Source of the DNA: Rhizophagus irregularis
Taxonomy: Eukaryota
Reading direction: 5' to 3'
Length of the DNA: 64,000 nucleotides
Assembly: GCF_026210795.1 (NCBI RefSeq)
Contig: NC_089433.1
Location: 1,798,001-1,862,000, forward strand
A program made the position numbers and the translations under genes. How positions within the stretch are numbered: the first letter of the stretch is position 1; each line of letters starts with the position of its first letter. The notes under the pieces were generated by a model. That model searched no databases, was not told the origin of the DNA, and saw nothing but the letters and a program-made list of their open reading frames with translations. Below are positions 7,229-47,669 of the stretch, piece by piece.

Positions 7229-8135
7229 CAGTACTGGCAAAAAGTAATTAGAATTGCAAAAAAATGCAATAAATGAGAAACCAGCGATTGAAATTACTTT
7301 AAATTTTACAGATTTATTGCCAAATGGATTAATATTAAATGTATAAAATGTCAGCTTTTTATCTTATTTCCTTATCTTACAATTGATTTTTTTTTTCGAA
7401 AAAAAATCCATTAAAAATTTAAGCAAGGTAAAAATTTAATAAAGATTTTTAATATTGTCCTTAATCATTAACAATCAACATATATAATTATAATAAAAAA
7501 TTATAAACATAAAAATATATCTTTAATTGATTTATTGAAAAAATTTGGTTGTTACTTAATTATTAGTTAGTTTTTCATTAATGTTGACTTAAAAATTATT
7601 AAAATAAAATAAAATTTAAATATATTATACTTATTTTTTCAAATATTTTGAATATTATTAAACTAACATTAAAAAGTCTTTATTATAATCCTTTATAATT
7701 ATTGTAATTAAAATTTAATTTTTGAATTTTAGTTCTTTTTACTAAAATTAAAGATTAGGTTAGGTTGCGATCAATATAGTAAAGAAACTTTGATCTCAAT
7801 TTTCTCAATAACCAACAAATAAAAAAGTTTCAAATTTTTTTTAATAAAATTAGCTTAGTGTAAACTTTAATTTATAATCATTCAACATTTTTATGAATTT
7901 TAATTTGAATACTATAATTAGAATTTCAGATTTTTTATAAGTTAAATATTTTACAATTTTTTTTTTTGAATTAAAAAATCAATTGAGAAACAAAGAAATA
8001 AGATAAAAGGCTGATAATTTATATACATAATAATGACATATTTGGCAAAAACTCTATAAAATTTGAAGTAATTTTAATCATTGGTTTCTCATTTATCACA
8101 TTTTTTGCAATTCTGATTACTTTTTGCCAGTACTG
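7229..8135. mobile_element. Tc1/mariner-type MITE with long TIRs
   Basis: TA|CAGTACTGGCAAAAAGTAAT...ATTACTTTTTGCCAGTACTG|TA; inverted similarity extends well over 100 bp; TA TSD. Confidence 0.9.
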
Positions 8136-10013: not shown

Positions 10014-10911
10014 CAGTCAACTCCCTCTATAGTTACTCCCATTATAGTCACATTCTACTATATAGTCACACCAGTTGAATGTTCAAAACACTTTATTATT
10101 AAAATCTATCCTATATAGTCACAATCTATCTAAAAATCTTATATTAAAAAGAACCGTTTATAATCACAGTTATATAAAGAATATATTAAATAACTTGGCA
10201 TCTAATAATCGTACAAAGATGTATCATAGCTTGTTAGAATCGTCTCACTGAGACGAATCGAATGGTGGTAGTTTTATCCTTTTCCGATCACTGGCTGACG
10301 AGTTATTCAACAAAATGTTAAATATCGGCATTATAATATTTCTTGATTTACGTTTACTGCGCCATTTAACATTTTGCTAGATTTCTCAGTACCTAGTGAT
10401 TATAAAAAGACGATTTATAGCTCGTTGGAATCGCCTCATCGAGACGAATCGAATGGTGGTAAGCTCATCTCTCTGTGATCAATATTGATGGAGTTATTAC
10501 TTAAAAACTATTTAATATTTTTTTAATTTCATAAATTGATCTAGTGATTGGATTTCGATGTATCTTATACATTAGATTCGTCTCATCAAGACGAATCGAA
10601 TGGTAGTAAGATCGTCTTTCTAGGATCAATATTGGCAGAGTTATTACACAAAAACCATTAATATTTTTTTAATTTCGGAAATTAATCTAGTGATTGGATT
10701 TCGATGTATTTTATACCATTAGAACCGTCTCATCAAGACGAATCGAATGGCAGTAAGATCATCTCTCTACGATTGATATTGGCGAAGTTACGATACAATA
10801 AAGTTTTAAGTATAATTCTGGCTAAAATTATGTTAATTTTTGGCCGGAATTATGATATACAAATATAAGAAATTTTTTATATAGTCACATCTCTTTATAA
10901 TCACCAAATAA
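10014..10911. mobile_element. Tc1/pogo-type non-autonomous element hosting the LINE array; matching right TIR not found in window
   Basis: TA|CAGTCAACTCCCTCTATAGT terminus; repeated TATAGTCAC/TATAATCAC motifs at 10030-10150 and again at 10880-10905; four internal repeats with core CGTCTCATCRAGACGAATCGAATGGT near 10241, 10431, 10579, 10726. Confidence 0.7.
10897..10911 (+). repeat. 15-bp target/TSD ATAATCACCAAATAA (also 18917-18931, 29854-29868, 44926-44940, 45823-45837)
   Basis: Five identical copies, one in front of every unit of the array. Confidence 0.95.
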
Positions 10912-11054
10912 GGAGGATCATCGCAACTCTTTCCTGAATTTTTGAAAATACTAATAAAAATTTATTTTTGAAATTTTCGTTCGAAAATTTCTAAGTGCTC
11001 GTTCAAAATACTAATATTTCCACAGTTGCTTTCCTCTTTACTGAGCTTTATACT

Positions 11055-13179
11055 ATGACTACACCTCCAGCTCCTTCTGTTATTAACCCGGATATTCCGC
11101 CGCCACCGCGTCCTGTTGCTTCAACTCCCTCTGGAGACCGACCTTTATCTCCTACTAATACCGCTGGCGCGCCTAACAAACGTTCACGCGTTGTTTCTGA
11201 TGACGCTATGAATGTTGATATAACTTCACCTTCTGCTTCGGCTCCCAACCTTACTTCCACCGCTCCTTCAGGTCTTCCTGTCAACAAAGTCCAAGTGCTT
11301 ACATCTCCTCAAAATACTACCACTCCTGTTGAAACTGTTGACGCTTCTATCCATGCTCCCTCTAACACCAGCGGTAAAGGCAAAGCTGTCGCCTTTCGAT
11401 ATTCCAGAACGACGACCATCCCCCGATGGTAATGCTGCCGCTATAAAATCCGCCCCATCTCGTTATTATGCTGCGGCATATTTACGCGACGCGCCTGTCG
11501 CGTTCAAGACTAAATTTTCCACCAATCGCTCCATGTGTGACGAAGTGGATTGCTCACTCTCCCGATATTCCTCATATGGCACCCGCGCACGTTGTGATGG
11601 ATCAGGCGATAACAAGAAAATCCTTGTCTTCTTTTTTGATCAACAGGATTTTACCGATTGTGTCAGCTCCCCACGTGCCAATCTTCTTGATTTGGCCTTT
11701 AGTCATTACTCCCCTGCTGACGCCAAACTCAGTGATAAAATGAAGTCTTTGTTCGTCACTGATATCCCACTTTTCCTTACTGAGACTCAAGTCCGTCAGG
11801 CATTTTCCCGATATGGCACTGTAATTAAGTGTAAACTTACTCCTAGAAAGCATTACTACAATGGCCATATCCAGTTCTCCTCCGCGGATGCAGTTACCCA
11901 ATTCAATGATATCTGGGCGATCATTTGCCTTGGTAATTCTTTACGTGTCTGCCCGGCATCTTTCTCAAAAGCCCAACGTGATAGCTGCAGAGAACATGTT
12001 GCTATCCTTGCCGGCATCCCTAAGAATATTAAAGAAGCTGATCTGTTAGAAATCGCTACTCAAGTCAACGCTAAGGCCCTTAACGTCCCTTTGTCTATCA
12101 GTTCCTACAAACCTAAACCTTATGTATATTTGAATTTCTCCTCATTTGAATCCCTTGAAGCTGCCAAAGAAATGACCGTGGCTTTCCGCGGCAAAGGATT
12201 AACATGGCACCCTCCCAATGAAGCACAAACTTTATGCCATGTCTGTGGGCGTCCTGGTTGTTCTCCCTCTGTATGTAATCCACGTCCTACTGGAAAGCTG
12301 GACGATCGCCTTAACAAACTTTATTCTCGTTTTAATGCTGGACCTAGACGTGGTCGTCAGGATTCGCGCCAATCACGTGACAATTCCACTTCCCGTTCAA
12401 GATCGCGTTCCAACTCTAGATCCCGCAATAATAATTCCTCTTCATCCCGTTCCAACAACAACAATAATACTTCTAACACTTCTCGTCCCAATACTTCTCA
12501 AAATAACAACCGGAACAATACTAATACTAATAATCATAGGAACAATAAAAATTCTTCCGGTTCTACTCAACCTCCACACCAACCTCATTCTGTCAATTCT
12601 ACATCACCTACTTCTCCATCGGATAATTCTGCCCTTATGCTTCCTCAACATATTATTGATGAATTAAAGGCGCAGATTAAAGAGAATCGCCACTACCCTT
12701 AAATCTCTTGACGATACTGTCTCCTGGATGCAGGATACTATCACGAATCATGATTATAGAATTTCTGAGCTTGAATCAATGATGAATTATGATTGCGGTA
12801 ATCCCGGTGACTCAAATTTGTACCCACCTCACTGACGATCAAGAAACTCATTCCTATAATCATGGATGGGATGATACTCCAACCCAAGACACGAATTCTG
12901 GATTCAATCTTCCTCCCAATACCTCTTCTTCTCTTATGGACGTCTCTCCTGATGCTTCCTTCTCAGCCCTAGATCCTAGCTCCATCCTATCAAGACGACA
13001 TGTTCCCTTACCTGTCTCCCGACCCACTATTACCACTCCTGATGCTAACGCTTCTTCGTTTGCAATCAGAAATTTTTAATGTTACTACTACACAAAAGAA
13101 TCTTTCTGCTCAACTTGGTTCGATTATGGAAAAATTGGACTCCTTCTCTCCTTCAAAACCTTCCCCTTCCAATGATTGA
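11055..13179 (+). pseudogene. LINE ORF1 (two RRM-like domains, zinc knuckle, S/R/N-rich region, coiled coil), with small indels
   Basis: ORF pieces 10995-11432, 11329-12702 and 12789-13079 align with the continuous copy-2 ORF1; motifs SLFVTDIP...GHIQF, YVYLNF, CHVCGRPGCSPSVC. Confidence 0.85.
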
Positions 13180-16100
13180 ACACCAATTTATATCGGGTGC
13201 ATCACAGGGATTTCACCCCCCTAATAGTGCGATACTTAATAATGATAGTCCTAATATTCCGCCTTCTTCTTCCTTTTCTTCCCCTCTTATTAACTTTGGA
13301 CAAATCAATGTTAATGGATTATGTTCCCCTGTGCGACAATTACATTTGTTAAATTATTTTCTCCATTCTTCTTTTGGCGTTTTATCTTTAAATGATACTC
13401 GTCTTACTTCTTCGGTGCCAAATTTATTTATCAAAATGAACATTTCCAACATAATTTTAAGTCCTATTGGGCTCCTTCCCCTTCTAATTCACGACCTCAT
13501 GATGGTGTTGGTCTTTTACTTCGCCATCCTTTACATAAACATGTTCAGAAAATTGATCCTTGGAAAGGTCGTCTTTTAAAATTAGATCTTTTTTTCCATC
13601 AGACAAAAATTTCTATTATTTCTGTTTATATTCCTCCTTATCATTCGATTCATTATAAAGAACGTGATGCTATTTTTGCCCAACTTAATTTATGGCTTGA
13701 TAAAGCCCGCTCTAATAACTATCACGTAGTCATCCTTGGTGATTTTAATGCAGATGAAATTTCACATTCACATCTTCCTCAACATCATTTAAAAATTTTA
13801 CGATCACTTTCTTCTCGATACTTTACGGATCATCAATCCCATATTTCTTCAATTTCAGGTCCTAGTCCCACTTTTTATCATCAAAATGGTTCTTCAAGAC
13901 TTGATTATATTTGGTCATCTCCTGGATTTCCTGCTCCTGGTCTCTTCTCTCATGTTGAAACTTGTCCTAAGCTGAATGATAATCAATTTACTGATCACCG
14001 TGTACTTATAACGGCCTTTGATTTTAGCTCATGTTTCGCTATTTTATCCAAAGCTAGATTAAAGCAGAAAAGCGAACAGCGTACCATCTTTCTTTACAAA
14101 AATTTGAAAGATGATGTTTGGGAGACCTTTTCCAATGAAGTAAACTCGCGTCTTGAGTTGTATTTGACCACACACCATCCCTCTATATCTTCACTTTCAG
14201 CTATTTCATTGGACAAACTTTGGCACGCTCTTAAACGTTCTATTCTTGGTGGTGCCATTGATTCCTTACCATTTCAGCATGTATCCAATACTCACCATCA
14301 TAAATATCCTCCTGAGCTTACGATGCTTATTGCTATCAACAAATTCTTGGATAGATTATTGTTCAAATTGACCACGTCTCGGCTTAGTCGTCCAGCTCAA
14401 ATTTCACAGATGATTAATTCTTTGTCTACACAATTAACTCTTCTGAAATCTCTTTTAATAGATTATACTATACCTATTTATAGTACGACACCACTTCCTG
14501 CTTTTATCAAATTTTTGCGTTCGCAAAAAGCCTTGGTCTCTGCATATCTTTCTACGCAATTTCATCAACATCGTGTAGATTCCATTGAATATTATACCGC
14601 TCTTAGAGATGAACATTTCTCTACGTCTCCAGGCTCCTTTATTTCTTCAGCCCTATCAGTGGAACATCGTTCTATTGTTCTTGATAGAGTTTTGGTTGTA
14701 ATTGACTCCAAACCTACTTTACTTACTGATCCTTCAGATATTAAACAAGCTGCTATTAAACACTTCCAATCGGTAGTTACTCCTCCTTTGGTCCAATATT
14801 CTTCTACCGAATCATTTCCTCCACGTTGGCAGAGAGCATATACTCCTTTTTCTGACATTGATTCATCCTTATATACTTCGGTTATGTCTCCTATTCTGGC
14901 CAATGAATGGATGAACACTATCAACTCTATGCCTAATAATAAAGCCTCTGGTCCTTCCAAAATTTCCTATGAGATGCTCAAACATTTAACTGGCGAAGCT
15001 TTCAACTTATCCCTTATTTTAGCTAATGCCTGCCTCATCCATGGAGATATTCCTGCAGATTGGCGTGAAGCGCTTGTTTATCCCATTCCAAAGCCTCATG
15101 AATTTGACGCACAATTGAAGAATACGCGACCCATCACTTTATTGGAAACTGTACGAAAATGTGTGGTTAAGGTCGTTACAACTCGTCTTTCAAAAATCCT
15201 AGCTGACAACCAAGTGCTTCTAGGTGGTAATTTTGCTGGATTGCCAGGCGGTTCCACTGATATTCCTATTAAGATGCTTGATGCTATTATTCATCAACGA
15301 CGCTTTGACAAAACTGATGACCAAGGATTATGGATTGTTTCTCAGGACATTTCTAAGGCCTTTGACTCAATTGATTTAAACATGCTTAGACTTGCTTTAA
15401 TTCGTCTGCATATACCGTCTTTATTGATTAAATTTATCATCAACCTTTTTACAAGACGTAATAATAAAATTATTACCCATCATGGTGATACTTCTGGATA
15501 TAGAGTTAGAATCGGTATTGACCAGGGTGAAATCATTTCTCCATTATTATGGGTTATTTACTTGGATCCTTTGCTTACCACACTTAATCGAGAAGCTTGT
15601 GATCCTTTTATTTTGAAATCTTCTGCATTATTGGATTATTCTCCAATTGAATATGAACAACACAATCTTCCTGTTTCACATATTACATTTATGGATGATT
15701 CTACTTTAATTGCTTCATCTAAACGAGGAATTGAAGATCGCCTTTCCATTACTGCTGAATTTTATACTTTAAATAATACTCAAGCAAATTCAGCAAAATA
15801 TATACTTCTTTCTTCTGAACAATTTTCTCAAACTATTGTGTTTGATCTTTCTCCATCCCCTCTAATTACATCTCATACCCTTACTTTAAAGGCGTTAGCC
15901 TTATCTACATCTTTTCGTTTTTTAGGTGTTTGGTTTAACCTTTCGGCTTCTTCTCGTTTTGTTCACAACCAAACTGTTTCCATGGTCAAAGATATGGCTG
16001 CTTTACTTAGTCCGAAAAAGCTTTTGGCGCAACATGTGACTTACCTTTACAATATTGTTTTACTTCCGAGGCTTGAGTTTCGCCTACAATCCACATTATT

Positions 16101-18651
16101 TGCTGAATCCACTATTAATCGCATGGTTTCTCCAATGCTTTCCCTTATTCGTCAGAAGGCTGGTTTGGCCTCGGTCACTCCTCTTTCCGCGCTTTTTACT
16201 ATGCTGCCTTTCTCCATTCAGCAAGCGTTTGGTCGATTTTTATCATCTCATGTGGCTTCATGGCAGAAAATTTTTTCTCACCCTTCATATAAGCTTTTTG
16301 CCAATTATATGATTACCTATCTCCAAGGACTTTTGGATTGTGATGCCTGTCCCTCTACTATTGATTTGGAACCATGGTCCCATACCTTTTCCTTACGAAC
16401 ACATTCTTTGTTCAATTCTTTATTGTTCTCTTCTCGATTGAATATCACGTGGTCTTTATTGTTCCGACCTCCGAGGAAAGATTTACGACCGGCGATTCCA
16501 CTCCGGTCTATTTTACCAAATGATTTATTTACTTCCATGAAAAATGTTCGGAATAATTTCTGCACTCGTTTTCTTGCTCAACTGATTACACCATGTGGCT
16601 CTCGACTTCTTTCATGGAAAGATTTACACTTTCTTAAACGAGTATCGAACAAAGGATCTGTGCCTGCTTGGTTTAATTATTTGTTCAATCTTATTGTTAT
16701 TCCTAATTCACCTTCTTTTTTTATTTTACAACAATTTAGAATTCCTAGTTCTCATACTGTAGCTTCTATTTCCTTTATAGATATTAGTCGAAATTATTGG
16801 TTTAACCCTCAATGGGCTATTTCTTTTAATCGTAATACTAATTCTTTTCTCGTTGGCCGTGTGATTACTACCTATCCTGCTCCACGTAATGAAGCTCTCA
16901 TTTCACATTGGATTGCGTCTTCGGTTGATGACTTGCTTTCTGATTTTACTGCATGCCAAGGTTGTGCCTCTGCTCTCCCGCGATCCTCTACCTCTAAGAC
17001 GTTGCTTAAACGATGTCCTTCTGAAAAGTGCTTCTCATATGTGTCTTTATCAAGTTTGATCCGTTATCCGATGAAACCTCGAACTTACATACATGCGGAT
17101 ACTCGCTCGGTTTCACTTTCCGCCTCGTTAGGCTATGCCAAATCTCTTTTATTATTTCATCTTTTTGCTCCAGATCGGTTACCTTCTATGAATGAACAAA
17201 TGCCTAGGATTTCTGTTATCCAACTTCCTTCTTCGGTGTCTACACTTTATATTGATGGTTCCTTCCTCCCTCCTTCTAGTCATCCGGTATCCTCGATGGC
17301 TTATGCATGGACTGCTATAGATCCTGATGGATTTATTTTGGAATCCCACTATAATATTATTTCCTCCATTTTTCCTTCTGCTTTACGTTCAGAAGTTTTT
17401 GCTTTATTGCACGGATTGGACTCCCTTCCTCGGAATTCAAAGATTACTGTTGCCACTGATTGTGCCCAATTACTTTCTTTTTGGTCTTTATATGTGGATG
17501 CTCCCTTTCTTCCCAGAATGCTTAAAGAATCCAACCACCTTTTGTGGTCTTCCATACGCACTATTATGTTGCAAAAGAATCTGGATGTTACCTTGATCAA
17601 GGTCCCTGCTCATGCTGACGATCCTTTGAATAATCATGTGGATGCATTAGCCAAAGCCGCTCATACTGACTCACAGCTTTCCTCTTGTCCACCCTCGGCA
17701 TTGATGGCTCCTTGCATTTTACAATTTAATTCCTTACCTGTGGATATGAATATCCGGAAATTTATTAGAGATATTTTTGACGCCAAAAGTCTTTTAACTC
17801 TTGCTGTATTGCCAAGATTTAATTCCTATTCTTCAACTTCTGATATTGATTGGGCTTGCACCAAATTTTGTCTCAATAACAATAAGCAATTTGCCTCTCA
17901 CCGGAATGGTCGTTCCGAGTTTTGTGGATTCCGTATCAAATTACTATTAGATATGCTTCCAACGCTTACAACTCTTCAGAGACGAAAGCCTCACCTATAT
18001 AATCCGAGTTGGCTATGTCCGCAATGTAATTCTTTTCCTGAGACCTTAGACCACTTGTGGACTTGTCCTTATATCTTACCGGAGTTTAGCCCTTTAAATA
18101 CCTTCAAGACACTACTGTTAAATTTTCTGACTAATTGTCTTGATAAATTCCTTTCTGCATCATCTTTAATACCCTTACCGGACTCTTTTGCTGCTGATTT
18201 TATATCTCTTAATTGTTGGAATTGTGATCCTCCTTCAGTTTCTTGCCTACGACTCGCTAGAGGACTTATACCGACTTCTCTTGCAGAATTTCTTGGAACT
18301 TATTTCTCTCTACTTCTCATATGGTCTATCTTAGATACACCTTTGCATGACTTTCATTTTGACCTTTATGTTCAAATCTGGTTGTGCCGTTCTATTTTCT
18401 TTCATCATTGGGAATCAGCTCAAGGCATTACTAAAAAACTGAAATTATCAGCTCTTGGGTCTTCTTCTATTTCTTGCACTTCCTCTAACGTCCCTCCTGA
18501 TTCTTCGACACCTTCTCTGGCGACAGTTTCCTCGGATTCCTGGGTTTCTTGGGTTTCCTCTTCTATAATCCGTGGGGGATCTTGGATTTCACACTTGGAT
18601 TTTTGGCGCCGCTTAACAGTTCAGCCTCTACTTAGGACTTCTTTTTGGTAA
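13172..18651 (+). CDS. LINE ORF2: APE endonuclease, reverse transcriptase, RNase H, C-terminal CCHC; one frameshift near 13413
   Basis: EN motifs GQINVNGL, GVGLLL, GDFN, RLDYIW, TDH; RT motifs KASGP, RPITLL, DISKAFDSI, GIDQGEIISPLLW, FMDD, FLGV; RNase H LYIDGS, SEVFA, ATDC, AHADDPLNNHVDALAK; CPQC..ETLDHLWTC. Confidence 0.93.
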
Positions 18652-19332
18652 CGGATTGGATCTTCGGATATGCTGGATAGTTGACTCACACTGGCCTTCG
18701 GGTAAAGATGGGGTATGCGTTTCTGTAATAGTTTAGTTTTCTTTACTTAATTTTATTTTGTTTAGATTTCTTTACTTGTATGATTCGTGAAGCTAGTTCT
18801 TTTTATTTTTTATGTTTATTTTCTATATTTGATATTTGTAATATTGTTTGATTTGTTTATTGTACTTTTCGTTTAAAAATTAATAATAAAAGATAAAGTC
18901 ACAAGACTGTTTGCTCATAATCACCAAATAAGAGGATCATCGCAACTCTTTCCTGAATTTTTGAAAATACTAATAAAATTTATTTTTGAAATTTTCGTTC
19001 GAAAATTTCTAAGTGCTCATTTAAAATACTAACATTTCCCCAGTTGCTTTCCTCTTTACTGAGCTTTAAACTATGACTACACCTCCAGCTCCTTCTGTTA
19101 TTAACCCAGATATTCCACCACCACCACGTCCTGTTGTTTCTGCTCCCTCTGGAGACCGACCTTTATCTCCCACTAGTACCGCTGGTGCGCCTAATAAACG
19201 TACACGTACTGTCTCTGATGACGTGATGAATGTTGATATAACTTCGCCCTCAGCTCCTGCCCCTACCTTATTTCTACCGTTCCTTCTGGTCTTCCTGTCA
19301 ACAAAGTCCAAGTGATCACATCTTCTCAAAAT

Positions 19333-19695
19333 CACAGGTCGAAATTAGTTAAATAGGGTATCAATAGGTTATCAATAGGTTATCAATCGGCTATCAATAG
19401 GCTACCCTATTGGTAGCCTATTGAACTTGCGCCATAATCCGTCACCAATCAGGCAGGCTGATTGTTAGCCAATTAATAACCTATTGATAACCTATTAGTA
19501 TCCTATTGGTATTTTTATCAAATTGGTTATCAATAAGGTATTAATAGGTTATCAATAGGTTATCAATCAGCCTGCCCGATTGGTGACGGATTATGGCGCA
19601 AGTTCAATAGGCTACCAATAGGGTAGCCTATTGATAGCCGATTGATAACCTATTGATAACCTATTGATACCCTATTTAACTAATTTCAACCTGTG
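19333..19695. mobile_element. Fold-back MITE, CAC termini, 3-bp TSD (CACTA/CMC-like)
   Basis: AAT|CACAGGTCGAAATTAG...CTAATTTCAACCTGTG|AAT; ~130-bp near-perfect arms with TATCAATAGGT repeats; empty site visible in copy 1. Confidence 0.93.
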
Positions 19696-22600
19696 AATAT
19701 TACCACTCCGGTTGAAACTGTTGACGCTTCTATCTATGCTCTCTCTAACACCAGTGGTAAAGGCAAAGCTGTCGCCTTTGATATCCTAGAACGACGCCCA
19801 TCTCCTGATGGTAATGCTGCTGCTATCAAATCCACACCTTCTCGCTACCATGCTGCGGCCTATCTACGTGACGCGCCTGACACGTTCAAAGCTAAATTTA
19901 CCACCAATCGCTCCATGTGTGACGAAGTGGATTGCTCACTCTCCCGATATTCCTCTTATGGTGCTCGCGCACGCTGCGATGGCTCAGGAGATAACAAAAA
20001 GATCCTCGTCTTCTTTAATGATCAACAGGATTTCACCGATTGTGTCAGCTCCCCACGTGCTGATCTTCTCAATTTAGTCTTCACCCATTATTCCCCTGCA
20101 GATGCCAAACTCAGCGACGAAGAAAAGTCTTTGTTTATCACTGATATCCCACTTTTCCTAAATGAGACTCAAGTCTGCCAAGCATTTTTCCGATATGGCA
20201 CTGTAGTTAAGTGCAAACTTACTCCTAAGAAGCATTATTATAATGGACATATACAGTTTTCCTCCGCGGATGCAGTTACCCAATTTAATGATATTTGGGC
20301 GATCATTTGCCTTGGTAACTCTCTACGTGTCTGCCCGGCATCCTTTTCGAAATCCCAACGCGATAGCCACAGAGAACATGTCGCTATCCTTGCTGGCATT
20401 CCAAAGAACATTAAAGAAGCTGATTTGCTTGATATTGCTACTCAAGTCAATGCTAAGGCTCTTAACATTCCTCTATCTATTAATTCCTACAAACCTAAAC
20501 CCTATGTATATTTGAATTTCTCCTCATTCGAATCTCTTGAAGCTGCCAAAGAAATGACCGTGGCTTTCCGCGGTAAAGGATTAACATGGCACCCTCCCAA
20601 TGAAGCACAGATTTTATGCCACGTTTGTGAACGTCCTGGTTGTTCTCCTTCTGTGTGTAATCTTCGTACTACACGGAAAGTGGACGATCGCCTTAACAAA
20701 CTTTATTCTCGCTTTAATGCTGGCCCTAGACGTGGACGTCAGGATTCGTGCCAATCACGTGACTATTCCACCTCCCGTTCACGATCGCGATCCAATTCTA
20801 GATCTCACAATAATAATTCCTCTTCACCCCGTTCCAACAACAATAACAACAACAACAATAACACTAACACTTCCCATCCTAATACTTCTCGAAGTAGTAA
20901 CCGGTCCAACAATAATAACAATCTCCGGAACAATGGTAATTCCTCTGGTCCTACCCAATCTCCAGACCAACCTCATCCTATCAGTTCTACACCTACTTCG
21001 CCATCTGACAGCCCTGCTCATACACTTCCTCAACATGTTATTGATGAATTAAAGGCGCAGATCAAAGAGATTGCTACTACCCTTAAATCTCTTGATGAAA
21101 CTGTTTCCTGGATGCAGGATACTATTACAAATCATGATTATAGAATATCTGAACTCGAATCAATGATGAATTATGATAATAATAATCCGGGTGACTCAGA
21201 TTTGTACCCACCTCATAATTATCACGATAACCATTCTTATGATAATGGATGGGATGATATCCCAGCCAATGACACGAATTCTGGATTCAATCTTCCTCCT
21301 CATACTTCACCTTCTCTTATGGACACTTCTCCAGATGCTTCCTTTTCAACTCTGGATCCTAACTCTGTCCTATCGAGACGACATGTTCCCTTACCTAATT
21401 CTCGACCTACTATTATTGCCCCTGACGCTAATTCTTCCCGTCTACAATCAGAAATCTTTAATGTTACTAATACACAAAAGAATCTTTCTGCCCAACTTGG
21501 TTCGATTATGGAAAAATTGGACTCCTTCTCTCCTTCAAAACCCTCCTCTTCCAATGATTGAACACCAATTTATATCGGGTGTATCACAGGGATTTCACCC
21601 CCCTAATATTGCGATACCTAAATTTAATAATCCTAATAATCTCTCTTCTCCTTTTTCCCCCTTGTTAATTTTGGACAAATCAATGTCAATGGTTTATGTT
21701 CTCCTGTTCGACAACTGCATTTGTTAAATTATTTTCTCCATTTCTCCTTTGGCGTTTTATCTTTAAATGATACTCGCCTTACTTCTTCTGGTGCTAAATT
21801 CATTTATCATAATCAACATTCCCTATATAATTTTAAGTCCTATTGGGCTCCTTCTCCTTTTAATTCACGACCACATGATGGCGTTGGTCTTTTACTTCGC
21901 CATTCTTTACATAAACATGTTCAGAAGATCGATTCTTGGAATGGTCGTTTATTAAAACTAGATCTTTTTTTTCATCAAACAAAAATTTCTATTATTTCTG
22001 TCTATATTCCTCCTTATCATTCTATTCATTATAAAGAACGTAATGCTATTTTTGCTCAACTTAATTTATGGCTCGATAAAGCCTGTTCTAATAATTATCA
22101 TATAGTTATTCTTGGTGATTTTAATGCAGATGAAATTTCACATTCACATCTTCCTCAACATCATTTGAAAATTTTGCGATCACTTTCTTCTCAATATTTT
22201 ACGGATCATCAATCCCATATTTCTTTGATTTCCGGTTCTAGTCCTACCTTTTATCATCAAAATGGTGCTTCAAGGCTTGACTATATTTGGTCATCCCCTG
22301 GATTTCCTGCTCCCAGTCTTTTCTCTCAAGTTGAAACTTGCCCTAAGTTGAATGATAATCAATTTACCGATCACCGTGTACTTATAACGGCCTTTGATTT
22401 TAGCTCTTGTTTCGCTACTTTAGCTAAAGCTAGACTTAAACAGAAAAGCGAACAACGCACCATCTTTCTTTACAAAAATTTGAAAGAAGATACTTGGGAC
22501 AAATTTTCTAATGAAGTAAACTCACGTCTCGAGTTATATTTGACCACACACCACCCTTCGATATCTTCACTATCAGTTCTATCCTTAGACAAACTTTGGC

Positions 22601-36600: not shown

Positions 36601-37230
36601 CATTTTTTGATAGAGAATTTTCTAAGAGTTCGTTTGGAAAAATTATTTTTTGAGAATTTTTTAACTAAAGGGATCATTTGGGACATTTTTGATAGAGAAA
36701 ATTCTAGGAGTTTATTTGGGGAAAGTATTTTTTGAGAATTTTTTAACTGAAGGTATCGTTTGATAGAGAAATTTCCAAGAGTTCGTATAGGGAAATTATT
36801 TTTTGAATTTTTTAATTAAGGGGATCGTTTAGGGTATTTTTTGATAGAGAATTTTCTAAGAGTTTGGGGAAATTATTTTTTGAGAATTTTTTAACTGAAG
36901 TATCGTTTGATAGAGAAATTTCTAAGAGTTCGTTTAGGGAAATTATTTTTTAAATTTTTTAATTAAGGAGATCGTTTAGGGCAATTTTTGATAGAGAATT
37001 TTCTAAGAGTTTGTTTGGAAAAATTATTTTTTAAATTTTTTAATTAAGAGGATCGCTTAGGGCATTTTTGATAGAGAATTTTCTAAAGATTCGTTTGGAG
37101 AGATTATTTTTGAGAATTTTTTAACTATTTGGAACATTTTTTGATAGAGAATTTTCTAAGAGTTTGTTTGAAAAATTATTTTTTGAGAATTTTTTAACTG
37201 AAGGTATCATTTGATAGAGAAATTTCTAAG
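33650..37230. repeat. Satellite array, ~81-bp monomer (two ~40-bp halves) with 242-bp higher-order repeat
   Basis: GAGTTCG anchor at 34441, 34522, ~34603 (81 bp) and at 34927, 35169, 35411, 35653, 35895, 36137 (242 bp). Confidence 0.92.
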
Positions 37231-37695
37231 ATAATATAGTTATTGAGTATGATATATACTTCCGATGGTGTATAGTAATAAAATTCTAAAAACCGTTCAT
37301 TGTATATTATAATCCAAGTACTTACAATTCATATCTTTTTCGTTTATATAATTATCATTCGGTAAATCATCTTTGATGTTTTGTCCCTATAATAATATTG
37401 AGAAAAGTTAATTTATCATTAATTTCGTCATAATAAGAGAAGTATAGTGTAAAAAAACTATACTGTATAGATAAAAGGGGTACTGTATAAAATAAAAACT
37501 ATACTGTATAAAATAAAAAACTATACTGTATAGATAAAAAATTATACTGTATGGATAAATATAGATTTTTATCAACTATACTATACAACATCGGAGGATT
37601 CGGAGGTATATTTCATACTCAATATCGTTTAACCAGAAATGGATGCTATCGGGTATTCAGTATATCGGTATATTTGATTGGCCGATCTACACATC

Positions 37696-39160
37696 TTTTT
37701 TGTAGATTCCGGGTAAGTGTCTCGAAAAATTTTGTTTTTTATGTAAGAACGTTCATTAACGTTCTTTTACTGCTTTTTTTTTTGTAGATTTCGGCCGGAA
37801 CTTGGAAATGGAGACCGGTGAGTATTTTTAAAAGGAGGAAGCAAGTTTTTTTTTTGGTTTTTCATATGTAAGAACGTTTATTAACGTTCTTTTACTTTTT
37901 CCTTTTTGTAGATTTCGGCCTGCGAACTTGAAATTAGGATCAGTAAGAGGGAAAGCAGGAGATTTTTTTATGTAAGAACGTTTATTAATGTTCTTTACTT
38001 CTTTTTTTTGTAGATTTTAGCCTGCAATTCGGATATGGGGACCGGTGGGTATTTGAGAAGGAGGAGGTTTTTTTTTTTTATGTAAGAACGTTTATTAACG
38101 TTCTTTTATTTTTTTTGTAGATTTTGGCCTGGAACTCAGAAATAGAGACCGGTGGTGAGTATTTTTAAAGGGAAGAAGCGGATTTTTAAATTTTTCTTTA
38201 TGTAAGAACGTATATTAACGTTCTTTTATTTTTATTTTTTTTGTAGATTTCGGCCCGGAACTCAGAAATGGAGACCGGTGAGTATTTTTAAAAAGGGAAG
38301 TGGGGGTTTTTTATTTTATTTATGTAAGAACGTTTATTAACGTTCTTTTATTTCTATTTTTTTTGTAGATTTCGGCCTGGAACTCAGAAATGGAGACCGG
38401 TGAGTATTTTTAAAAAGGGAAGTGGGGGGTTTTTTATTTTATTTATGTAAGAACGTTTATTAACGTTCTTTTATTTCTATTTTTTTGTAGATTTCGGCCC
38501 AGAACTCAGAAATGGAGACCGGTGAGTATTTGGAAAAGTAGGGGTTTTTTTTGTTTTCTTTATGCAAGAACGTTTATTAACGTTCCTTTACTTCTTTTAT
38601 TGTAGATTTTAGCCCGGAACTTGAAAATGGAGACCGGTGAGTATTTCTAAATGTTTTTTTATATTTATTCATGTAAGAACGTTTATTAACGTTCTTTTAC
38701 TACCTTTTTTTTGTAGATTTTAGCCCAGAACTCGGAAATGGTGACCAGTGGTGAGTATTTTTAAAGGGAGGAAGCGGATTTTTTTAATTTTTCTTTGTGT
38801 AAGAACGTTTATTAACGTTCCTTTACTTCTTTTTTTTTGTAGATTTTAGCCCAGAACTTGGAAATGGAGACCGGTGAGTATTTCTAAAAGAGGAAGTTAT
38901 TTTTTTATATTTCTTCATGTAAGGACGTTAATAATGTTCCCTTTCTTTTTTTTATCATTTTTATTAGGGACATGGATTCTTGGATAATAATACAAACTGT
39001 AAGTTGAGTGGATGAAGGAGATTCTAAATAATTGTGATATTATGAAAAATCAGTGATTTAACTTGTTGACTGGTATATGTATGATAGGCTACCGATAGGT
39101 ACCCGATATATGACTAATTGGTATATTTAAGTAGGGTTTTGTATTATTTAAAGTAATAAA
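37696..39160 (+). ncRNA. Putative micro-exon/intron array (about 11 units of ~120 bp)
   Basis: Unit: TTTTGTAG|~31-nt exon ATTTCGGCCCGGAACTCAGAAATGGAGACCG|GTGAGT...AAGAACGTTTATTAACGTTCTT...poly-T; AATAAA at ~39155. Confidence 0.6.
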
Positions 39161-42100
39161 GAGTTTAACTTGCAGTGTAATTCTAGTATAAATAGTATAA
39201 ATGCATTTTATTAATTATAATAATCCGGATTGATATGTTGGGGTTAAAATCCATGGCCCAATCAGAATTTGTTGTTGTAATCAGGCGATTGATCACATGA
39301 TTTCAGTATTTATATTTCGCACTTTGTTTATTTTTTTTTTCCTTTCGTAAAAACCTTTCTCTTAAACTTTTTATTTAAAACAAACTCTTTACTTAGTTAT
39401 TATGAAATAATATTATTATTATATTTTTTTATTTATTTTTATATTAGAAATAAACATAAAGGTATATTTTTATTATGCTCGTTTTTTCTTTTATATATAC
39501 ATTTTCTATTGACGTTCTAATACTTTTTTTCTTTTCTCTCACTAATGTTTTCTACCACTTATTAACATTTTCTATTAATATTAAATACTACTAACATGTT
39601 TTTATTAACATTCTCGTATTAATATTTTCTATTTTACTAACTTTTCTTTCTTCCTACTAACATTTTTACTAATATTTTCTATATTTACCACTAACGTTTT
39701 TATTAATATTTCTATTTTTATTTCTCTTATTAATTAATATACTTACTAATATTTTCACTAATATTTCTTTTAAATGTTAAACAGATAATTTTATTATCAT
39801 TGTTACTTTTAGTAGAACTTTACATATTACATAGTATAATTATTTATTTTTAATGTTCAACTTTATTTGATTTTACGTATGTAGTAGATAGAGTAAGATT
39901 TGTATTATTGTTTAAATTTTAATAAAGTTGAATTTCATTTTATCTGAATTAAAATAAAAAAAAGAGATATATGTCTATTGGTTTTATATGAAATTTATAG
40001 CTACTAACTGATGTATTACAAATATTTTACTACCCGATATATGTGTGTTAAATATATGATATTTATAATATATATCACTGATATTTGACTACCCGATATG
40101 TATAAGATATATACATGATGTTTACAAGATATGTCACCGATATTTGACTACCCGATATGTATAAGATATATACATGATGTTTACAAGATATGTCACCGAT
40201 ATTTAACTACCCGATATGTGTAAGATGTATACATGATGTTTACAGTATATGTCACCGATTTTCTACATTTCTACTACACATATCGGGTACCTGATATGTG
40301 TGGTATTGTTAAATATCATACACATATATCACATATATTATACACATATCAGGTACCTGATATGTACCCGATAGTATTGATTTTGACCAGTGCTAGTCGT
40401 CCTGCTCAAATTTCACAACTGATTAATTATCCATCTACCCAATTAATCCTTCTTAAATCTCTTTTAACAGATTATACTATACCTTCTTATAGTACAACAC
40501 CACTTCCTAATTTTGTCAAATTCTTGCGTTCACAAAAAGCTTTGGTCTCAGCTTATCTTTTCACGCAATTTCATCAACATTGTGTAGATTCCATTGAATA
40601 TTATACTGCTCTTAGAGATGAACATTTCTCTACATCTCCGGGCTCCTTTATTTCTTCAGCCCTTTCAGTGGAACATCGTTCTATCGTTCTTGATAGAGTC
40701 TTGGTTGTTATTGACTCTAAACCCACTTTACTTACTGATCCTTCAGATATCAAACAAGCTGCTATTAAACACTTCCAATCGGTTGTTACTCCTCCTTTGG
40801 TCCAGTATTCTTCTATAGATTCATTTCCTCCACGATAGCAAAGAGCATATACCCCTCTTTCCGATATTGATTCGTCATTATATAACTCGGTCATGTCTCC
40901 TATTTTGGAAGATGAATAGAAGAATATTCTCAATTCTATGCCTAATAACAAAGCCTCTGGTCCTTCCAAAATTTCTTATGAGATGCTCAAACATTTAACT
41001 GGCGAAGCTTTCAATTTATCCCTTATTTTAGCTAATGCCTGCCTCATTCATGGAGATATTCCTGCTGATTGGTGTGAAGCGCTTGTTTATCCCATTCCAA
41101 AGCCTCATGAATTTGACGCACAATTAAAGAATACGCGACCTATCACTTTATTGGAAACTGTACGAAAATGTGTGGTTAAGATCATTACAACTCGTCTTTC
41201 AAAAATCCTAGCTGACAACCAAGTGCTCCAAGGTGGTAATTTTGCTGGATTGCCAGGCGGTTCCACTGACATTCCTATTAAGATGCTTGATGCTATTCTT
41301 CATCAACGCCGCTTTGACAAAACTGATGACCAAGATTTATGGATTGTTTCTCAAAACATTTCTAAGGCCTTTGACTCAATTGATTTAAACATGCTTAGAC
41401 TGGCTTTAATTCGTCTGCATATTCCGTCTTTATTGATCAAATTTATTATTAACCATTTTACAAGACGTAATAATAAAATTATTACCCATTATGGTGATAC
41501 TTCTGGATATAGAGTTAGAATTGGTATTGACCAAGATGAAATCATTTCTCCATTATTATGGGTTATTTACTTGGATCCTTTGCTTACTACACTTAATCGA
41601 GAAGCTTGTGATCCCTTTATTTTGAAATCTTCTGCATTATTGTATTATTCTCCAATTGAATATGAACAACACAATCTTCCTGTTTCGCATATTACATTTA
41701 TGGATGATTCTACTTTAATTGCTTCATCTAAACGAGGAATTGAAGATCGCCTTTCCATTACTGCTGAATTTTATACTTTAAATAATACTCAAGCCAATTC
41801 AGCAAAATATATTCTTCTTTCTTCTGAACAATTTTCTCAAACTATTATGTTTGATCTTTCTCCATCCCCTCTAATTACATCTCATACCCTTACTTTAAAG
41901 GCATTAGCCTTATCTACATCTTTTCGATTTTTAGGTGTTTGGTTTAATCTTTTGGCTTCTTCTCATTTTGTTCACAACCAAACTGTTTCCATGGTCAAAA
42001 ATATGGCTGTTTTACTTAGTCTTAAAAAACTTTTGGCACAACATGTGGCCTATCTTTATAATATTGTTTTACTTTCGAGGCTAGAATTTCGCCTACAATC

Positions 42101-44940
42101 CACATTATTTGCTGAATCCACCATTAATCGCATGGTTTCTCCAATGCTTTCTCTTATTCGTCAGAAGGCTGGTTTGGCCTCAGTCACTCCTCTCTCTGCG
42201 CTTTTCACACTGTTGCCGTTCTCTATCCAACAAGTGTTTGGTCGATTTCTATTATTTCATGTGACTTCATGGCAGAAAATTTTTTCTCACCCTTCATATA
42301 AACTTTTTGCCAATTATATGATTACCTATCTCCAAGGATTTTTGGATTGTGATGCCTGTCCTTCTACTATTGATTTGGAACCATGGTCCCATACCTTTTC
42401 CCTATGAACACATTCTTTGTTTAATTCTTTATTGTTCTCTTCTCGATTGAATATCACATGGTCTTTATTATTTCGACCTCTGAGGAAAGATTTACGACCG
42501 GTGATTCCACTCTGGTCTATTTTACCAAAAGATTTATTTACTTCCATGAAAAATGTTCGGAAAAATTTCTGCACTTGTTTTCTTGCTCAACTGATTACAC
42601 CATGTGGCTCTCGACTTCTCTCATGGAAAGATTTACGCTTTCTTAAACGAGTATCGAACAAAGGATCTGTGCCTGCTTGGTTTAATTGTTTATTCAATCT
42701 TATTGTTATTCCTAATTTACTTTCTTTTTTTATTTTACAACAATTTAGAATTCCTAGTTCTCATACTGTAGCTTCTATTTCCTTTATAGATATTAGTCGA
42801 AATTATTGGTTTAACCCTCAATGGGCTATTTCTTTCAATCGTAATACTAATTCTTTTCTTGTTGGCCGTGTGATTACTACCTATCCTGCTCCACGTAATG
42901 AAGCTCTCATCTCACATTGGATTGCGATTTCAGTTGATGATTTGCTTTCTGAATTTACAGCATGTCAAGGATGTGCCTCTGCTATTTCGCGATCCTCTAC
43001 CTCTAAGACTCTACTTAAACGATGTCCTTCTGAAGGATGTTTTTCTTATGTTCCGTTATCAAGTTTGATCCGTTGTCCTACGAAACCTCGTACTTATATA
43101 CATGCGGATACTCGTTCGGTCTCACTCTCTGCCTCATTAGGCTATGCCAAATCTCTTTTATTATTTCATCTTTTTGCTCCGGGTCGATTGCCTTCTATGA
43201 ATAACCATGTGTCTAGGATCTCGGATATCCAACTTCCTTCTTCGGTGTCTACACTTTATATTGATGGCTCCTTCCTTCCTTCTTCTAGTCATCTGATATC
43301 TTCGATGGCTTATGCATGGACTGCTATAGATCCCGATGAATTTATTTTGGAATCCCATTATAATATCATTTCTTTTATCTTTTCTTCTGCTTTACGTTCA
43401 GAAGTGTTTGCTTTATTGCATGGATTGAACTCCCTCCCTTGGAATTCTAAGATTACTGTCACCACTGATTGTGCTCAATTACTTTCTTTATGGTCTTTAT
43501 ATGTGGATGCTCCTTTTATTCCCAGAATGCTTAAAGAATCCAACCACCTTTTGTGGTCCTCCATACGCACTATTATGTTGCAAAAGAATCTGGATGTTAC
43601 CTTGATCAAGATTCCTGCTCATGCTGACGACCCTTTGAATAATCATATGGATGCATTAGCTAAAGCCGCTCATACTGACTCACATCTTTCTTCTTGTCTA
43701 CCATCGGAATTGATGGCTCCTTGCATTTTACAATTTAATTTTTTACCTGTGGATATGAATATCCAGAAATTTATTAGAGATATTTTTGACGCTAAAAGTC
43801 TTTTAACTCTTGCTGTATTACCAAGATTTAATTCCTATTCTTCAACTTCTGATATTGATTGGGCTTGCACCAAATTTTGTCTTAATAACAATAAGCAATT
43901 TGCCTCTCATCGGAATGGACGTTCCGAGTTTTGTGGTTTCCGTATCAAATTACTTTTAGATATGCTTCCAACGCTTACAACTCTTCAGAGACGAAAGCCT
44001 CATCTTTATAATTCCAGTTGGCTTTGTCCTCAATGTAACTCTTTTCCTGAGACTTTAGACCACTTGTGGACTTGTCCTTATATCTTACCAGAATTTAGCC
44101 CTTTAAATACTTTTAAAACACTTCTATTGGCTCTCTGGACTAATTATCTTGACAAATTCCTTTCCGCGTCATCTTTAATACCTTTACTGGACTCTTTTGC
44201 TGCTGAATTTATGGCTCTTGATTGTTGGAATTGTGACCCTCCTTCATTTTCTTGCCTGAGACTCACACGAGGACTTATACCGATATTCCTTACAGAATTT
44301 CTTGGAAATTATTTTTCTTCACTTACCATATGGTCTATCTTAGATACACCTTTGCACGACTTTCATTTTGACCTTTATGTCCAAATCTGGTTGTGCTGTT
44401 CCATTTTCTTTCATCATTGGGAATTAGCTCAAGGCATTATAAAAAAAATGAAATTGTCAGCTCTTGGGCCTTCATCTATTCTTTGTCCTTCCTCTAACAT
44501 TCCTCTTGACTCTTCGACACCTTCCTTGGCGACAGCTTCCTTGGATTCCTGGGTTTCTTGGGTTTCCTCTTCTATAATCCGTGGGGGATCTTGGATTTCA
44601 CATTTGGATTTTTAGCGCCGCTTAACAGTTCAGCCTCTACTTAGGATTTCTTTTTGGTAACGGATTAGATCTTAGGACATGCTGGATAGTTGACTCACAC
44701 TGGCCTTCGGGTAAAGATGGGGTATGCGTTTCTGTAATAGTTTAGTTTTTCTTTACTTAATTTTATTTAGTTTAGATTTCTTTACTTGTATAAATCGTGA
44801 AGCTAGTTCTTTTTATTTTTATGTTTATTTTCTATATTTGATATTTGTAATATTGTTCGATTTGTTTATTGTACTTTTCGTTTAAAAATTAATAATAAAA
44901 GATAAAGTCATAAGACTGTTTGCTCATAATCACCAAATAA

Positions 44941-45822
44941 TAGCGTGAAGGCACAGGGATTAGTGTAGTTGGACTGCATCATGGTGAATTAGTGTGTACA
45001 GTTAGGCCGCACATTTCAACTAAGGGTCATGGTGTCCTTCTAACGTTCTCTGAAGAGCCACTTGGCATGTGCCTGGGGCCCCGTCTTTCGAGGTCACTAC
45101 TATACCTTGGAGGGGACTTCCTGTCCGGGTGGTCACTCTACGATACCACTTGGGGTCAGTAATGGCTAGATGGTCGTCCTAGATGGTAAAGCTGAGGGTG
45201 CAATGTCTTAGTGGTAGTTTGACCTTCTGTTAGGTCTTAGACCAACCACAGTGTTCGTGCACAGAACAGATAGCTTGGTGATTGGGTTCGATTCCCTTCT
45301 CTGATGGGCCCTGGTTGGTGATTCCTGGTGGTTGATACCCACCATAAGGGATGATCCTGGGTAACACCTACAAGCTTACTGTCCAGGTGGTCGCTACAAA
45401 GTATACCACTTGGGGATTACAACTGTACTATCGGTGGTGGGTAATCGCGGGCTGTAGTGGCCTTTGAGTGAGACCTGGTACCTAATATGGTAGTATGGAA
45501 GGGGTCCAGATGTTTGAAGGTTATTTGACGAAAGTCCTCCGTGACAGTAGTAGTGGTGAGGGGTTTATAATAGTAGCCATTACAGTATCATGCAGTGGAT
45601 TAAAGGACGAGTAGGGTGGTGTTTAGCAGATTCGAAGGCCTTTGGGTCCCTGGAATATGTCCTTGCGTTTCGGTTGTGATGTTGAATTGTCCCTGTTAAA
45701 AAGGTGGCAGGAATGGTTACATCATGGCTTAGTGAGGATGATGCAATGAACGACCTACCTCCATAGCCTTCAATAGAGGGTGCGAAAAGTAGTGGCCACT
45801 AAACTTACAAAACACTTGTAAA
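44941..45822 (+). mobile_element. 882-bp GC-rich non-coding SINE-like element inserted at the LINE target
   Basis: Flanked by the 15-mer on both sides; no ORF, no visible similarity to the LINE; A-box-like TAGTGTAGTTGG 44961-44972, B-box GGTTCGATTCC 45285-45295; no TTTT on + strand. Confidence 0.75.
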
Positions 45823-45837
45823 ATAATCACCAAATAA

Positions 45838-47669
45838 GATTCTCTCATGGAAAGATTTACGTTTCCTTAAACGAGTATCGAACAAAGGACCTGTGCCTGC
45901 TTGGTTTAATTATTTATTTAATCTTATTGTTATTCCTAATTCTCCTTATTTATTTGTTTTATCACAATTTAAAATTCCTATTTCTCATACTGTAGTTTCT
46001 ATTTCTTTTATAGACATTAGTCGAAATTATTGGTTTAACCCTCAATGGGCTATTTCTTTTAATCGTAATACTAACTCCTTCCTTGTTGGCCGTGTGATTA
46101 CTACCTATTCTGCTCCACGTAATGAAGCTCTTATTTCACATTGATGATTTGCTTTCTGATTTTACTGCATGCCAAGGTTGTGCCTCTGCTATTCCGCGAT
46201 CCTCTACCTCTAAGACTTTGATTAAATGATGTCCTTCTGAAGGATGCTTTTCTTATATTCCGTTATCTAGTTTGATCCGTTATCCTACGAAACCTCATAC
46301 TTATATACATGTGGATACTTGCTCGGTTTCACTTTCTGCCTCGTTAGGCTTTGCCAAATCTCTTTTATTATTTCATCTTTTTGCTCCAGTTCGATTACCT
46401 CCTATGAATAATTAAGTGCCTAGGATTTCTGATATCTGACTTCCTTCTTCAGTGTCTACGCTCTATATTGATGGTTCCTTCCTTCCTCCTTCTAGTCATC
46501 CGGTATCTTCGATGGCTTATGCATAGACTGCTATAGACCCTGATGGATTTATTTTGGAATCTCATTATAATAGTATTTCTTCCATTTTTCCTTCTGCTTT
46601 ACGTTCAGAAGCTTTTGCTTTATTACATGGATTGGACTCCCTCCCTTGGAATTCAAAGATTACTGTCGCCACTGATTGTGCCCAACTACTTTCTTTATGG
46701 TCTTTGTATGTGGATGTTCCTTTTATTCCCAGATTGCTTAAAGAATTCAACCACCTTTTGTGGTCCTCCATACGAACTATTATGTCACAAAAGAATCTGG
46801 ATGTTTCCTTGATTAAAGTTCCTGCTCACGCTAACGATCCTTTGAATAATCATGTGGATGCATTAGCCAAAGCCGCTCATATTGACTCACATCTCTCTTC
46901 TCATCCGTTTTCGGAATTGTTGGCTTCTTGCATTTTACATTTTAATTCTTTACCTGTGGATATGAATATCCAGAAATTTATTAGAGATATTTTTGACGTG
47001 AAAAGTCTTTTAACTTTTGCTATATTACCAAGATTTAATTCCTATTCTTCAACTTCTGGTATCGATTGGGCATGCACCAAATTTTGCCTTAATAACAATA
47101 AGCAATTTGTCTCCCATCGGAATGGCCGTTCCGAGTTTTGTAGCTTCCGTATCAAATTATTATTAGATATGCTTCCAACGCTTACAACTCTCCAGAAACG
47201 AAAGCCTCATCTTTATAATCCGAGTTGGCTTTGTCCTCAATGTAACTCTTCTTCTGAGACTTTAGACCACTTGTGGACTTGTCCTTATATCTTACCAGAA
47301 TTTAGCCCTCTAAATACTTTTAAAGCACTACTATTAGCTCTCCGGACTACTTGTCTTGATAAATTTCTTTCTGAGCCATCTCTACTACTTTTACCAGATT
47401 CCTTCGCTGCTGATTTTAAAGCTATTGATTATTGGGATTGTGATCCTTCTTCAATTTCCTGTCTGCGACTTACACGAGGACTTATACCAATATCTCTTAC
47501 AAAATTTCTTGGAAATTATTTTTCAACATTTACCATATGGTCTATTTTAGATACTGACGAATTCAATTTTTTCATAATGCCTTGAGCTGATTCCCAATGA
47601 TGAAAGAAAATGGAACAGCACAACCAGATTTGTACATAAAGGCCAAAATGAAAGTCATGTAAAGGTGTA
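45838..47669 (+). mobile_element. LINE copy 4, 5'-truncated, last ~115 bp inverted, 3' end missing
   Basis: Begins directly after the 15-mer at a position equivalent to ~16607 of copy 1; forward to 47554; 47554-47669 is the reverse complement of the next LINE segment. Confidence 0.9.

Follow-up and report, generated by a model that had tools for sequence, protein, structure and literature searches.

The window analysed here is a 64-kb stretch of the genome of Rhizophagus irregularis (contig NC_089433.1, positions 1,798,001 to 1,862,000; coordinates below are those of the window). It carries a head-to-tail array of a long interspersed nuclear element (LINE) of the apurinic/apyrimidinic endonuclease (APE) type, and the sequence ATAATCACCAAATAA, hereafter the 15-mer, stands in front of each of its five units. 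The evidence supports the LINE copies of the array as independent insertions. We propose, with a probability of roughly 55%, that the array was built by separate target-primed insertions into the 15-mer, a pre-existing target that would have been duplicated each time as a target-site duplication (TSD). The genomes of arbuscular mycorrhizal fungi are rich in repeats, and their LINEs are catalogued by class only; a LINE family confined to its own junction sequence, if the proposal is right, would explain abundance with little damage to genes.

Layout of the array and identity of the element

The layout was drawn from a BLAST search of the first unit against the window and from the printed junction sequences. 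From left to right it comprises a flank (flank U), copies 1, 2 and 3 of the LINE, an 882-bp unit, copy 4, an inverted piece and unrelated DNA (Table 1). Five exact matches to the 15-mer are found in the window, all on the + strand and each before a unit. Allowing up to two mismatches adds a single match, at 7808, which is probably due to chance; a total of six at this stringency was reached in none of 100 dinucleotide shuffles, for which the mean was 1.03. Exact matches, self-BLAST and junctions all agree with the preliminary description of this DNA, according to which the 15-mer precedes three full-length LINE copies, an 882-bp element and a 5′-truncated copy.

Table 1. Units of the LINE array, the 15-mers that separate them and the elements nested within the copies
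Feature	Position	Strand	Remarks
15-mer no. 1	10897..10911	+	separates copy 1 from flank U, which looks unique
LINE copy 1, full length, 8005 bp	10912..18916	+	from self-BLAST and junctions
15-mer no. 2	18917..18931	+	exact match
LINE copy 2, full length, 7989 bp without inserts	18932..29853	+	11 in-frame stops; inserts at 19333-19695 and 25369-27938
15-mer no. 3	29854..29868	+	exact match
LINE copy 3, full length, 8000 bp without insert	29869..44925	+	11 in-frame stops; insert at 33337-40392
15-mer no. 4	44926..44940	+	exact match
882-bp non-coding repeat unit	44941..45822	+	unrelated to the LINE
15-mer no. 5	45823..45837	+	exact match
LINE copy 4, 5′-truncated	45838..47554	+	spans copy-1 positions ~5706 to 7442; 4 stops
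Inverted LINE piece, 116 bp	47555..47669	-	copy-1 positions 7440-7555; right edge of the array, rearranged; unrelated AT-rich DNA beyond it
363-bp palindromic element resembling a miniature inverted-repeat transposable element (MITE)	19333-19695		in copy 2; CACAGG ends, 3-bp duplication
2570-bp element with terminal inverted repeats (TIRs)	25369-27938		in copy 2; 42-bp TIRs, TA duplication
7056-bp TIR element	33337-40392		in copy 3; CACTGG ends, 3-bp duplication, filled with satellite-like tandem repeats
81/242-bp repeat unit, about 43 copies	33735-37212		inside the 7056-bp element
122-bp repeat unit	37738-38929		inside the 7056-bp element

Once the nested inserts are set aside, copies 1 to 3 are 88.3-90.0% identical in pairwise comparison. 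The LINE begins with GAGGATCATCGC and ends with ...GACTGTTTGCTC, and it has no poly(A) tail. Copy 1 has one extra G between the 15-mer and GAGGATC, and copy 4 starts inside open reading frame (ORF) 2, directly behind the 15-mer. It had been claimed that the 15-mer stays invariant while the copies diverge. The five copies of the 15-mer are indeed identical, but in this it is not unique: the three full-length copies do not vary either in the 14 nt that close the LINE or in the 39 nt that open it (counted after the extra G of copy 1). Among these three copies, identity is 95-98% over the first 100 nt and 87-98% over the last 100 nt, compared with 88-90% over the whole element.

The 15-mer lies directly behind all three intact LINE 3′ ends of the window and also behind the 882-bp unit, so that four of the five 15-mers directly follow the 3′ end of an element. 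The remaining one, the first, follows flank U. The 120 nt upstream of it do not resemble the LINE 3′ end, their alignment score being equalled or exceeded in 273 of 500 shuffles. The possibility that flank U is a decayed LINE 3′ end was rejected for this reason. A 147-bp tandem repeat (2.5 copies, 85% matches) is present at 10428-10790, about 100 bp upstream of the first 15-mer.

At the other end of the array no 15-mer is found behind the last unit. The preliminary description called this last copy 5′-truncated, which is correct but incomplete, since its 3′ end is also broken, by the inverted 116-bp piece. Because the 3′ side of copy 4 is rearranged, the right border of the array must be considered lost, and any sixth 15-mer with it. 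The 116-bp LINE segment is inverted in place, and what once completed copy 4 and flanked the array on the right has been removed.

The ORF2 frame of copy 1 is open for 1751 codons. Its product matches the Pfam families Exo_endo_phos (2.4e-10) and Exo_endo_phos_2 (8.9e-10), both of the APE type, followed by RVT_1 (4.2e-16) and a C-terminal RNase_H (1.9e-06), while ORF1 matches RRM_1 (9.5e-08). The order of the domains, with the APE endonuclease N-terminal to the reverse transcriptase (RT), is that of an APE non-LTR (long terminal repeat) retrotransposon, that is, a LINE. The earlier identification of the element as a LINE with APE, RT and RNase H agrees with these matches.

Among 6379 candidate proteins, 265 are relatives at E <= 0.001, the best of them at 92-93% identity; 117 of the 120 relatives listed bear the name Rhizophagus irregularis and come from many contigs. 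Judging from these matches, the LINE family is abundant in this species. Decay was scored by comparison with the gene model P0003 (2475 aa), in which ORF1 and ORF2 are joined. Copy 1 shows at least five frame changes in the ORF1/linker part and no stop across 1745 aa of ORF2; the stops of the other copies (Table 1) were counted against the same model, those of copy 4 in about 580 aa. By their reading frames, all four copies in the window are defective. P0003, in whose cluster other members of 2491-2502 aa are listed, reads ORF1 and ORF2 as one protein with a coiled-coil linker (window 11055-13414). The family may have a single fused ORF, or else the gene models may bridge the frames by false introns.

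Separate insertions and duplication in place

The relationships of the copies were examined in a tree of a 476-aa stretch common to all four, with 19 family proteins from other contigs and four outgroup proteins. Thirty-eight proteins cover at least 90% of this stretch; the 19 at 76% identity or more were used, together with four at ~50% as the outgroup, and the 15 other distant ones were omitted. The four window copies do not come together in one clade. Copy 1 has P0013, P0006 and P0014 as its partners, with a value of 96 in the Shimodaira-Hasegawa-like approximate likelihood ratio test (SH-aLRT), and the approximately unbiased (AU) test rejects the best tree that unites the four copies (difference in log-likelihood 30.1, p = 0.030). 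The terminal branches have lengths of 0.05 for copy 1, 0.12 for copy 2, 0.053 for copy 3 and 0.11 for copy 4.

The inserts tell of separate histories as well. Copies 2 and 3 carry three non-autonomous DNA transposons with terminal inverted repeats, none of which is common to two copies, as had been noticed at the outset. Since the copies are not a clade by the AU test, have decayed unequally, share no nested transposon, and include one with an extra G at its start and one truncated exactly at the 15-mer, independent insertion of the LINE copies is supported. The last two features, the 5′ truncation of copy 4 and the extra G at the 5′ junction of copy 1, fit the marks left by target-primed reverse transcription.

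Could the array instead have grown by tandem duplication, or unequal crossing-over, of one LINE with a random 15-bp TSD, the copies having diverged later in place? Unequal exchange is a known route to tandem arrays of transposable elements, and the regular unit length of ~8 kb and the single orientation of all copies would be expected from it. We consider this origin highly improbable, given that the window copies are not each other's nearest relatives (AU p = 0.030), have no older insertions in common, and differ in age and in number of stops. Besides, the foreign 882-bp unit and the truncated copy are each bounded by the 15-mer, and the same joints occur in other arrangements elsewhere. By our own arithmetic, the probability that five 15-mers would remain unchanged while the copies fell to 88-90% identity is ~0.01-0.02; this figure takes in the 15-mers alone, and the LINE termini are unchanged too. 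The conservation of the termini fits differences that arose among active source elements before insertion rather than decay after local duplication. The statement in the preliminary description that simple tandem duplication cannot explain the array is therefore upheld, as the copies do not form a clade and differ in branch length, stops and inserts.

That the array is an artefact of the assembly of a repeated family deserves still less credence. The LINE family is highly repeated, which speaks for it, but with copies 10-12% apart and different elements nested in them a collapse or false join is unlikely, and the generic joints of the array are present in contigs of independent runs.

Joints outside the window and the nature of the 15-mer

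Joints outside the window were sought in Logan contigs of public sequencing runs; the stretch is present in 20 rows, which come from 10 studies. Most of these contigs measure 31-130 bp; rare branches have been discarded from them, and their depth is not a copy number. A 915-bp stretch across junction 2 aligned with 289 to 3149 contigs per run, from which it follows that the LINE family is highly repeated. In run X12, 18 contigs aligned with a 105-bp stretch. One of them, of 76 bp and with a depth of 2278, reads from the last 14 nt of the LINE through the 15-mer into 45 nt of a LINE 5′ end. This end is covered by just one further X12 contig (depth 370), in which it is preceded by the 882-like 3′ end ...ACACTTGTAAA and the 15-mer, and the two depths together make up the entire depth of the LINE 5′ end, 2648. 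With fewer than 31 letters on the left, the X12 joint contigs lie below the length set for bridging, and their 14 left letters are those of the LINE-specific end.

Contigs of the type LINE, 15-mer, LINE are also present in runs X2 (record 13) and X5 (record 20). In seven X2 contigs and one X12 contig, the sequence before the 15-mer agrees at 20 of 22 letters with the 882-bp unit's 3′ end. Among the rows listed (18 of 30 for the 105-bp stretch and 24 of 321 for the 915-bp stretch), there was no loose end directly before the LINE 5′ end at 18932. The extra G behind the 15-mer was found in four contigs of X1 and two of X5, and in none of X2 and X12. In independent copies, the LINE has a precise 3′ junction to one fixed sequence, with some departures.

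The gene models of R. irregularis provide a second view of these joints. P0082 starts in sequence like the 882-bp unit and continues into ORF1 of the LINE, and P0129 and P0130 run from the LINE 3′ region through 882-like sequence and into the LINE 3′ region again. Because gene models at independent loci join them, the LINE and the 882-like family appear to be regular neighbours in the same orientation at several places, and the 882-bp unit belongs to a repeat family that adjoins the LINE outside the window too. A search of read-through gene models for further 3′ joints returned only P0004 and P0126 (one locus), which consist of the LINE 3′ untranslated region (UTR) and 14 letters of the 15-mer, followed by other sequence. 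A practical consequence is that several annotated "genes", namely P0082, P0129, P0130 and P0004/P0126, are likely annotation artefacts, chimeras read across LINE/882-like stacks or through the 3′ UTR.

In viral contigs, the 15-mer alone gave only chance matches among the matches listed. The 21-nt 3′ joint had no match in viral contigs and two in contigs of bacterial metagenome-assembled genomes; these have no further likeness and are attributed to chance.

The preliminary description argued that the 15-mer is not the 5′ end of the LINE, and its presence before the truncated copy and the 882-bp unit supports this. One may still ask whether it is a 5′ leader, a promoter or 5′ end belonging to every unit, copy 4 having arisen by internal deletion. 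The count would fit exactly, with five units and five 15-mers, each in front, and in X12 the 15-mer precedes every LINE 5′ end detected. Nevertheless, we regard a leader as very unlikely: it would have to serve both the unrelated 882-bp unit and a copy that starts at ~5706, an extra G separates the 15-mer from the LINE 5′ end in copy 1 and in X1 and X5 contigs, and in three X2 contigs the sequence departs behind 18930, after 14 of the 15 letters, into yet another sequence.

The proposal that the 15-mer is an insertion target can be put as follows, by analogy with the R1 element of Drosophila. The first step would be a nick by the APE endonuclease in the bottom strand, where the 15-mer has its left edge. 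The freed 3′ end, the complement of the 15-mer, would anneal to the 15-mer carried at the 3′ end of a read-through element RNA and would prime reverse transcription. A cut in the top strand, 15 bp downstream, would come next. With a 15-mer then left on both sides of every new copy, the landing pad would be renewed and stacks could grow. The 882-bp repeat family may ride on the same LINE machinery. For the first insertion the 15-mer would have been present at the locus already; in favour of the target proposal, the first 15-mer adjoins DNA that is unlike the LINE 3′ end.

Several observations weigh against the 15-mer being such a target. The first is one of numbers: with five units there are five 15-mers, while duplication of the target at each insertion leads one to expect six, of which the sixth would fall in the lost right border. 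Secondly, chance alone should place any particular 15-mer in a 150-Mb genome less than about once (our own arithmetic), and because of this rarity a genomic target independent of the elements is hard to see. Nor is a host gene seen: Rfam and tRNA scans of the window gave no match, with no rRNA, snRNA or tRNA in it. Thirdly, some LINE 3′ ends leave the reference before or inside the 15-mer, behind 18914 (one contig each in X5 and X12), 18917 (one in X5), 18920 (one in X12, at a depth of 227, which is not a copy number) and 18922 (two in X2), so that the link between LINE and 15-mer is not absolute. Finally, the Logan census is biased towards repeated joints, and single-copy junctions to unique DNA would be missed by it.

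In X1 and X5, some family members have a joint that goes back 241 bases, from 18914 to 18674, with 19 other letters between; it represents a duplicated segment of the 3′ UTR. Because of this duplication (18674-18914), a part of the LINE 3′ ends does not continue into the 15-mer.

The rarity of the 15-mer speaks for the main alternative, which we consider possible, though doubtful: the 15-mer would be a 3′ tail of the elements themselves, common to LINE and 882-like repeat, and each new copy would be primed at an existing tail or beside it, so that the family targets itself. A stack would start from a copy that bears the tail, or consists of it alone, and has landed at random. Such a tail would account for the absence of an evident host target. 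It agrees with the position of four of the five 15-mers directly behind the 3′ end of an element and with P0004, which reads the LINE 3′ UTR and 14 nt of the 15-mer before other sequence; and the 3′ ends of the LINE and of the 882-bp unit have only the 15-mer in common, as expected of a common recognition or annealing tail. On the other hand, the first 15-mer follows DNA unlike any element end, for which an insertion of 15 nt only must be assumed, and a tail gives no reason for an insertion point exactly at its end. The 3′ region with the 15-mer has no stable fold either (z = +1.17; 180 of 200 shuffles fold as well). The two explanations would partly become one if read-through gives the RNA its 15-mer. 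They part over whether there are 15-mers standing free and solitary copies flanked by the 15-mer.

The 882-bp unit has a G+C content of 48% and a longest ORF of 72 aa. It resembles neither the LINE nor anything else in the window, and no Rfam or tRNA model matches it. Two other identities were considered for it. As a short interspersed nuclear element (SINE), or other non-autonomous partner, it should have a 3′ end homologous to that of the LINE, and this was rejected: the best local alignment of its last 120 nt with the last 300 nt of the LINE scores 14, which was equalled in 449 of 500 shuffles. The possibility that the unit is the 3′ UTR of a related LINE family was also rejected, as it has no protein likeness apart from the chimeric gene models.

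Taking the target proposal in its widest form, one arrives at a fungal APE LINE with RNase H whose sole landing pad is a self-created 15-bp sequence, common to a non-coding passenger repeat, and which forms LINE-only stacks across the Rhizophagus genome instead of hitting genes. Such an element would stand for a lineage of target-specific APE LINEs outside animals, directed at something other than a host gene. We offer this general picture tentatively and think it rather unlikely to hold in all its parts.

Relation to known LINEs

The closest parallel is the Drosophila R1 element, whose tandem copies are separated only by the 14-bp TSD of its 28S target (PMC2718515, Stage and Eickbush 2009). 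In that account, R1 arrays arise as further copies insert into the TSD that lies 5′ of a copy already in place, and the RNA of R1 often includes target sequence from its flank, through which it may pair with the nicked target (PMC2718515). Insertion into the TSD is thus a mechanism already known from R1 tandem arrays. Like R1, the Rhizophagus LINE is of the APE type, lacks a poly(A) tail and is arranged head to tail with a short fixed spacer, of 14 bp in R1 and 15 bp here; in both, 5′ joints include extra nucleotides and truncations while 3′ joints are precise. In contrast to R1, whose target is a conserved site in the multicopy 28S rRNA gene of its host, the 15-mer is known only beside elements, with no host gene seen. 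The Rhizophagus LINE further differs in its fungal host, in an ORF2 with RNase H and in a site common to an unrelated non-coding repeat. It would work, we suggest, like R1 in tandem insertion, the likeness being one of arrangement.

LINEs of the Tx1 clade are APE-type elements that land at one sequence, often inside other repeats. The Rhizophagus LINE is like them in its type and in its proposed single landing sequence. Target-specific members of this clade include Tx1L, Keno, Mutsu and Dewa (PMC4640811). The same paper reports RNase H for the I group (including R1 and Tad1), plant L1, Proto1 and Dualen (PMC4640811). The protein structures in the PDB do not discriminate between clades, with matches to R2 at 71.9 bits and to L1 ORF2p at 61.9 bits, and the endonuclease alone had no match. 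A nearby Atlas cluster auto-named "Transposon TX1" was treated as a lead only. In metagenome contigs, a search with the C-terminus of ORF2 gave one locus, a distant relative at 33% identity without element ends.

Tad1 elements are not known to be sequence-specific or array-forming. In other respects the Tad1 clade is like the Rhizophagus LINE, with a fungal host, no poly(A) tail and the domain order APE, RT, RNase H. The presence of RNase H in Tad1 is reported in PMC4640811.

Arrays are also formed by MoTeR of Magnaporthe and Zepp of Chlorella, LINEs found at chromosome ends or in their own tails. HeT-A and TART of Drosophila are array-forming LINEs at chromosome ends (PMC13534243). All of these resemble the Rhizophagus array as head-to-tail stacks from repeated end-on insertion. 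They differ from it in using telomere repeats, chromosome ends or poly(A) tails, whereas the Rhizophagus spacer is a unique 15-mer at an internal locus.

For R. irregularis itself, "LINE R1" is listed as abundant in repeat libraries (PMC8647823), and the labels LINE/L1-Tx1, L1-R1, R2-Hero, RTE-BovB, I and CR1-Zenon are in use (PMC11075540); these published labels could not be tied to the LINE of the window. In the parts available of PMC11075540, PMC8647823 and bioRxiv 2022.10.19.511543, there is no mention of LINE target specificity or of head-to-tail stacks. More generally, the literature searched, to which supplements with possible family lists did not belong, yielded no site-specific or array-forming LINE described for Glomeromycota. 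The suggestion that a target-specific LINE of this lineage may be undescribed therefore stands for the element in the literature searched, but not for the mechanism, which has been described for R1 (PMC2718515).

If the proposal is right, the array would be a second, non-rDNA case of the R1-type mechanism of insertion into the TSD. It would also offer a short, defined target with which to test how the APE endonuclease and the annealing of RNA to the target set specificity.

Outside the array, the window contains at 55223-55987 (+) an open frame of 255 aa that weakly matches the Pfam family Tse2 ADP-ribosyltransferase, at 24.0 bits and thus below the cut-off of 26.6 (E 6.8e-05).

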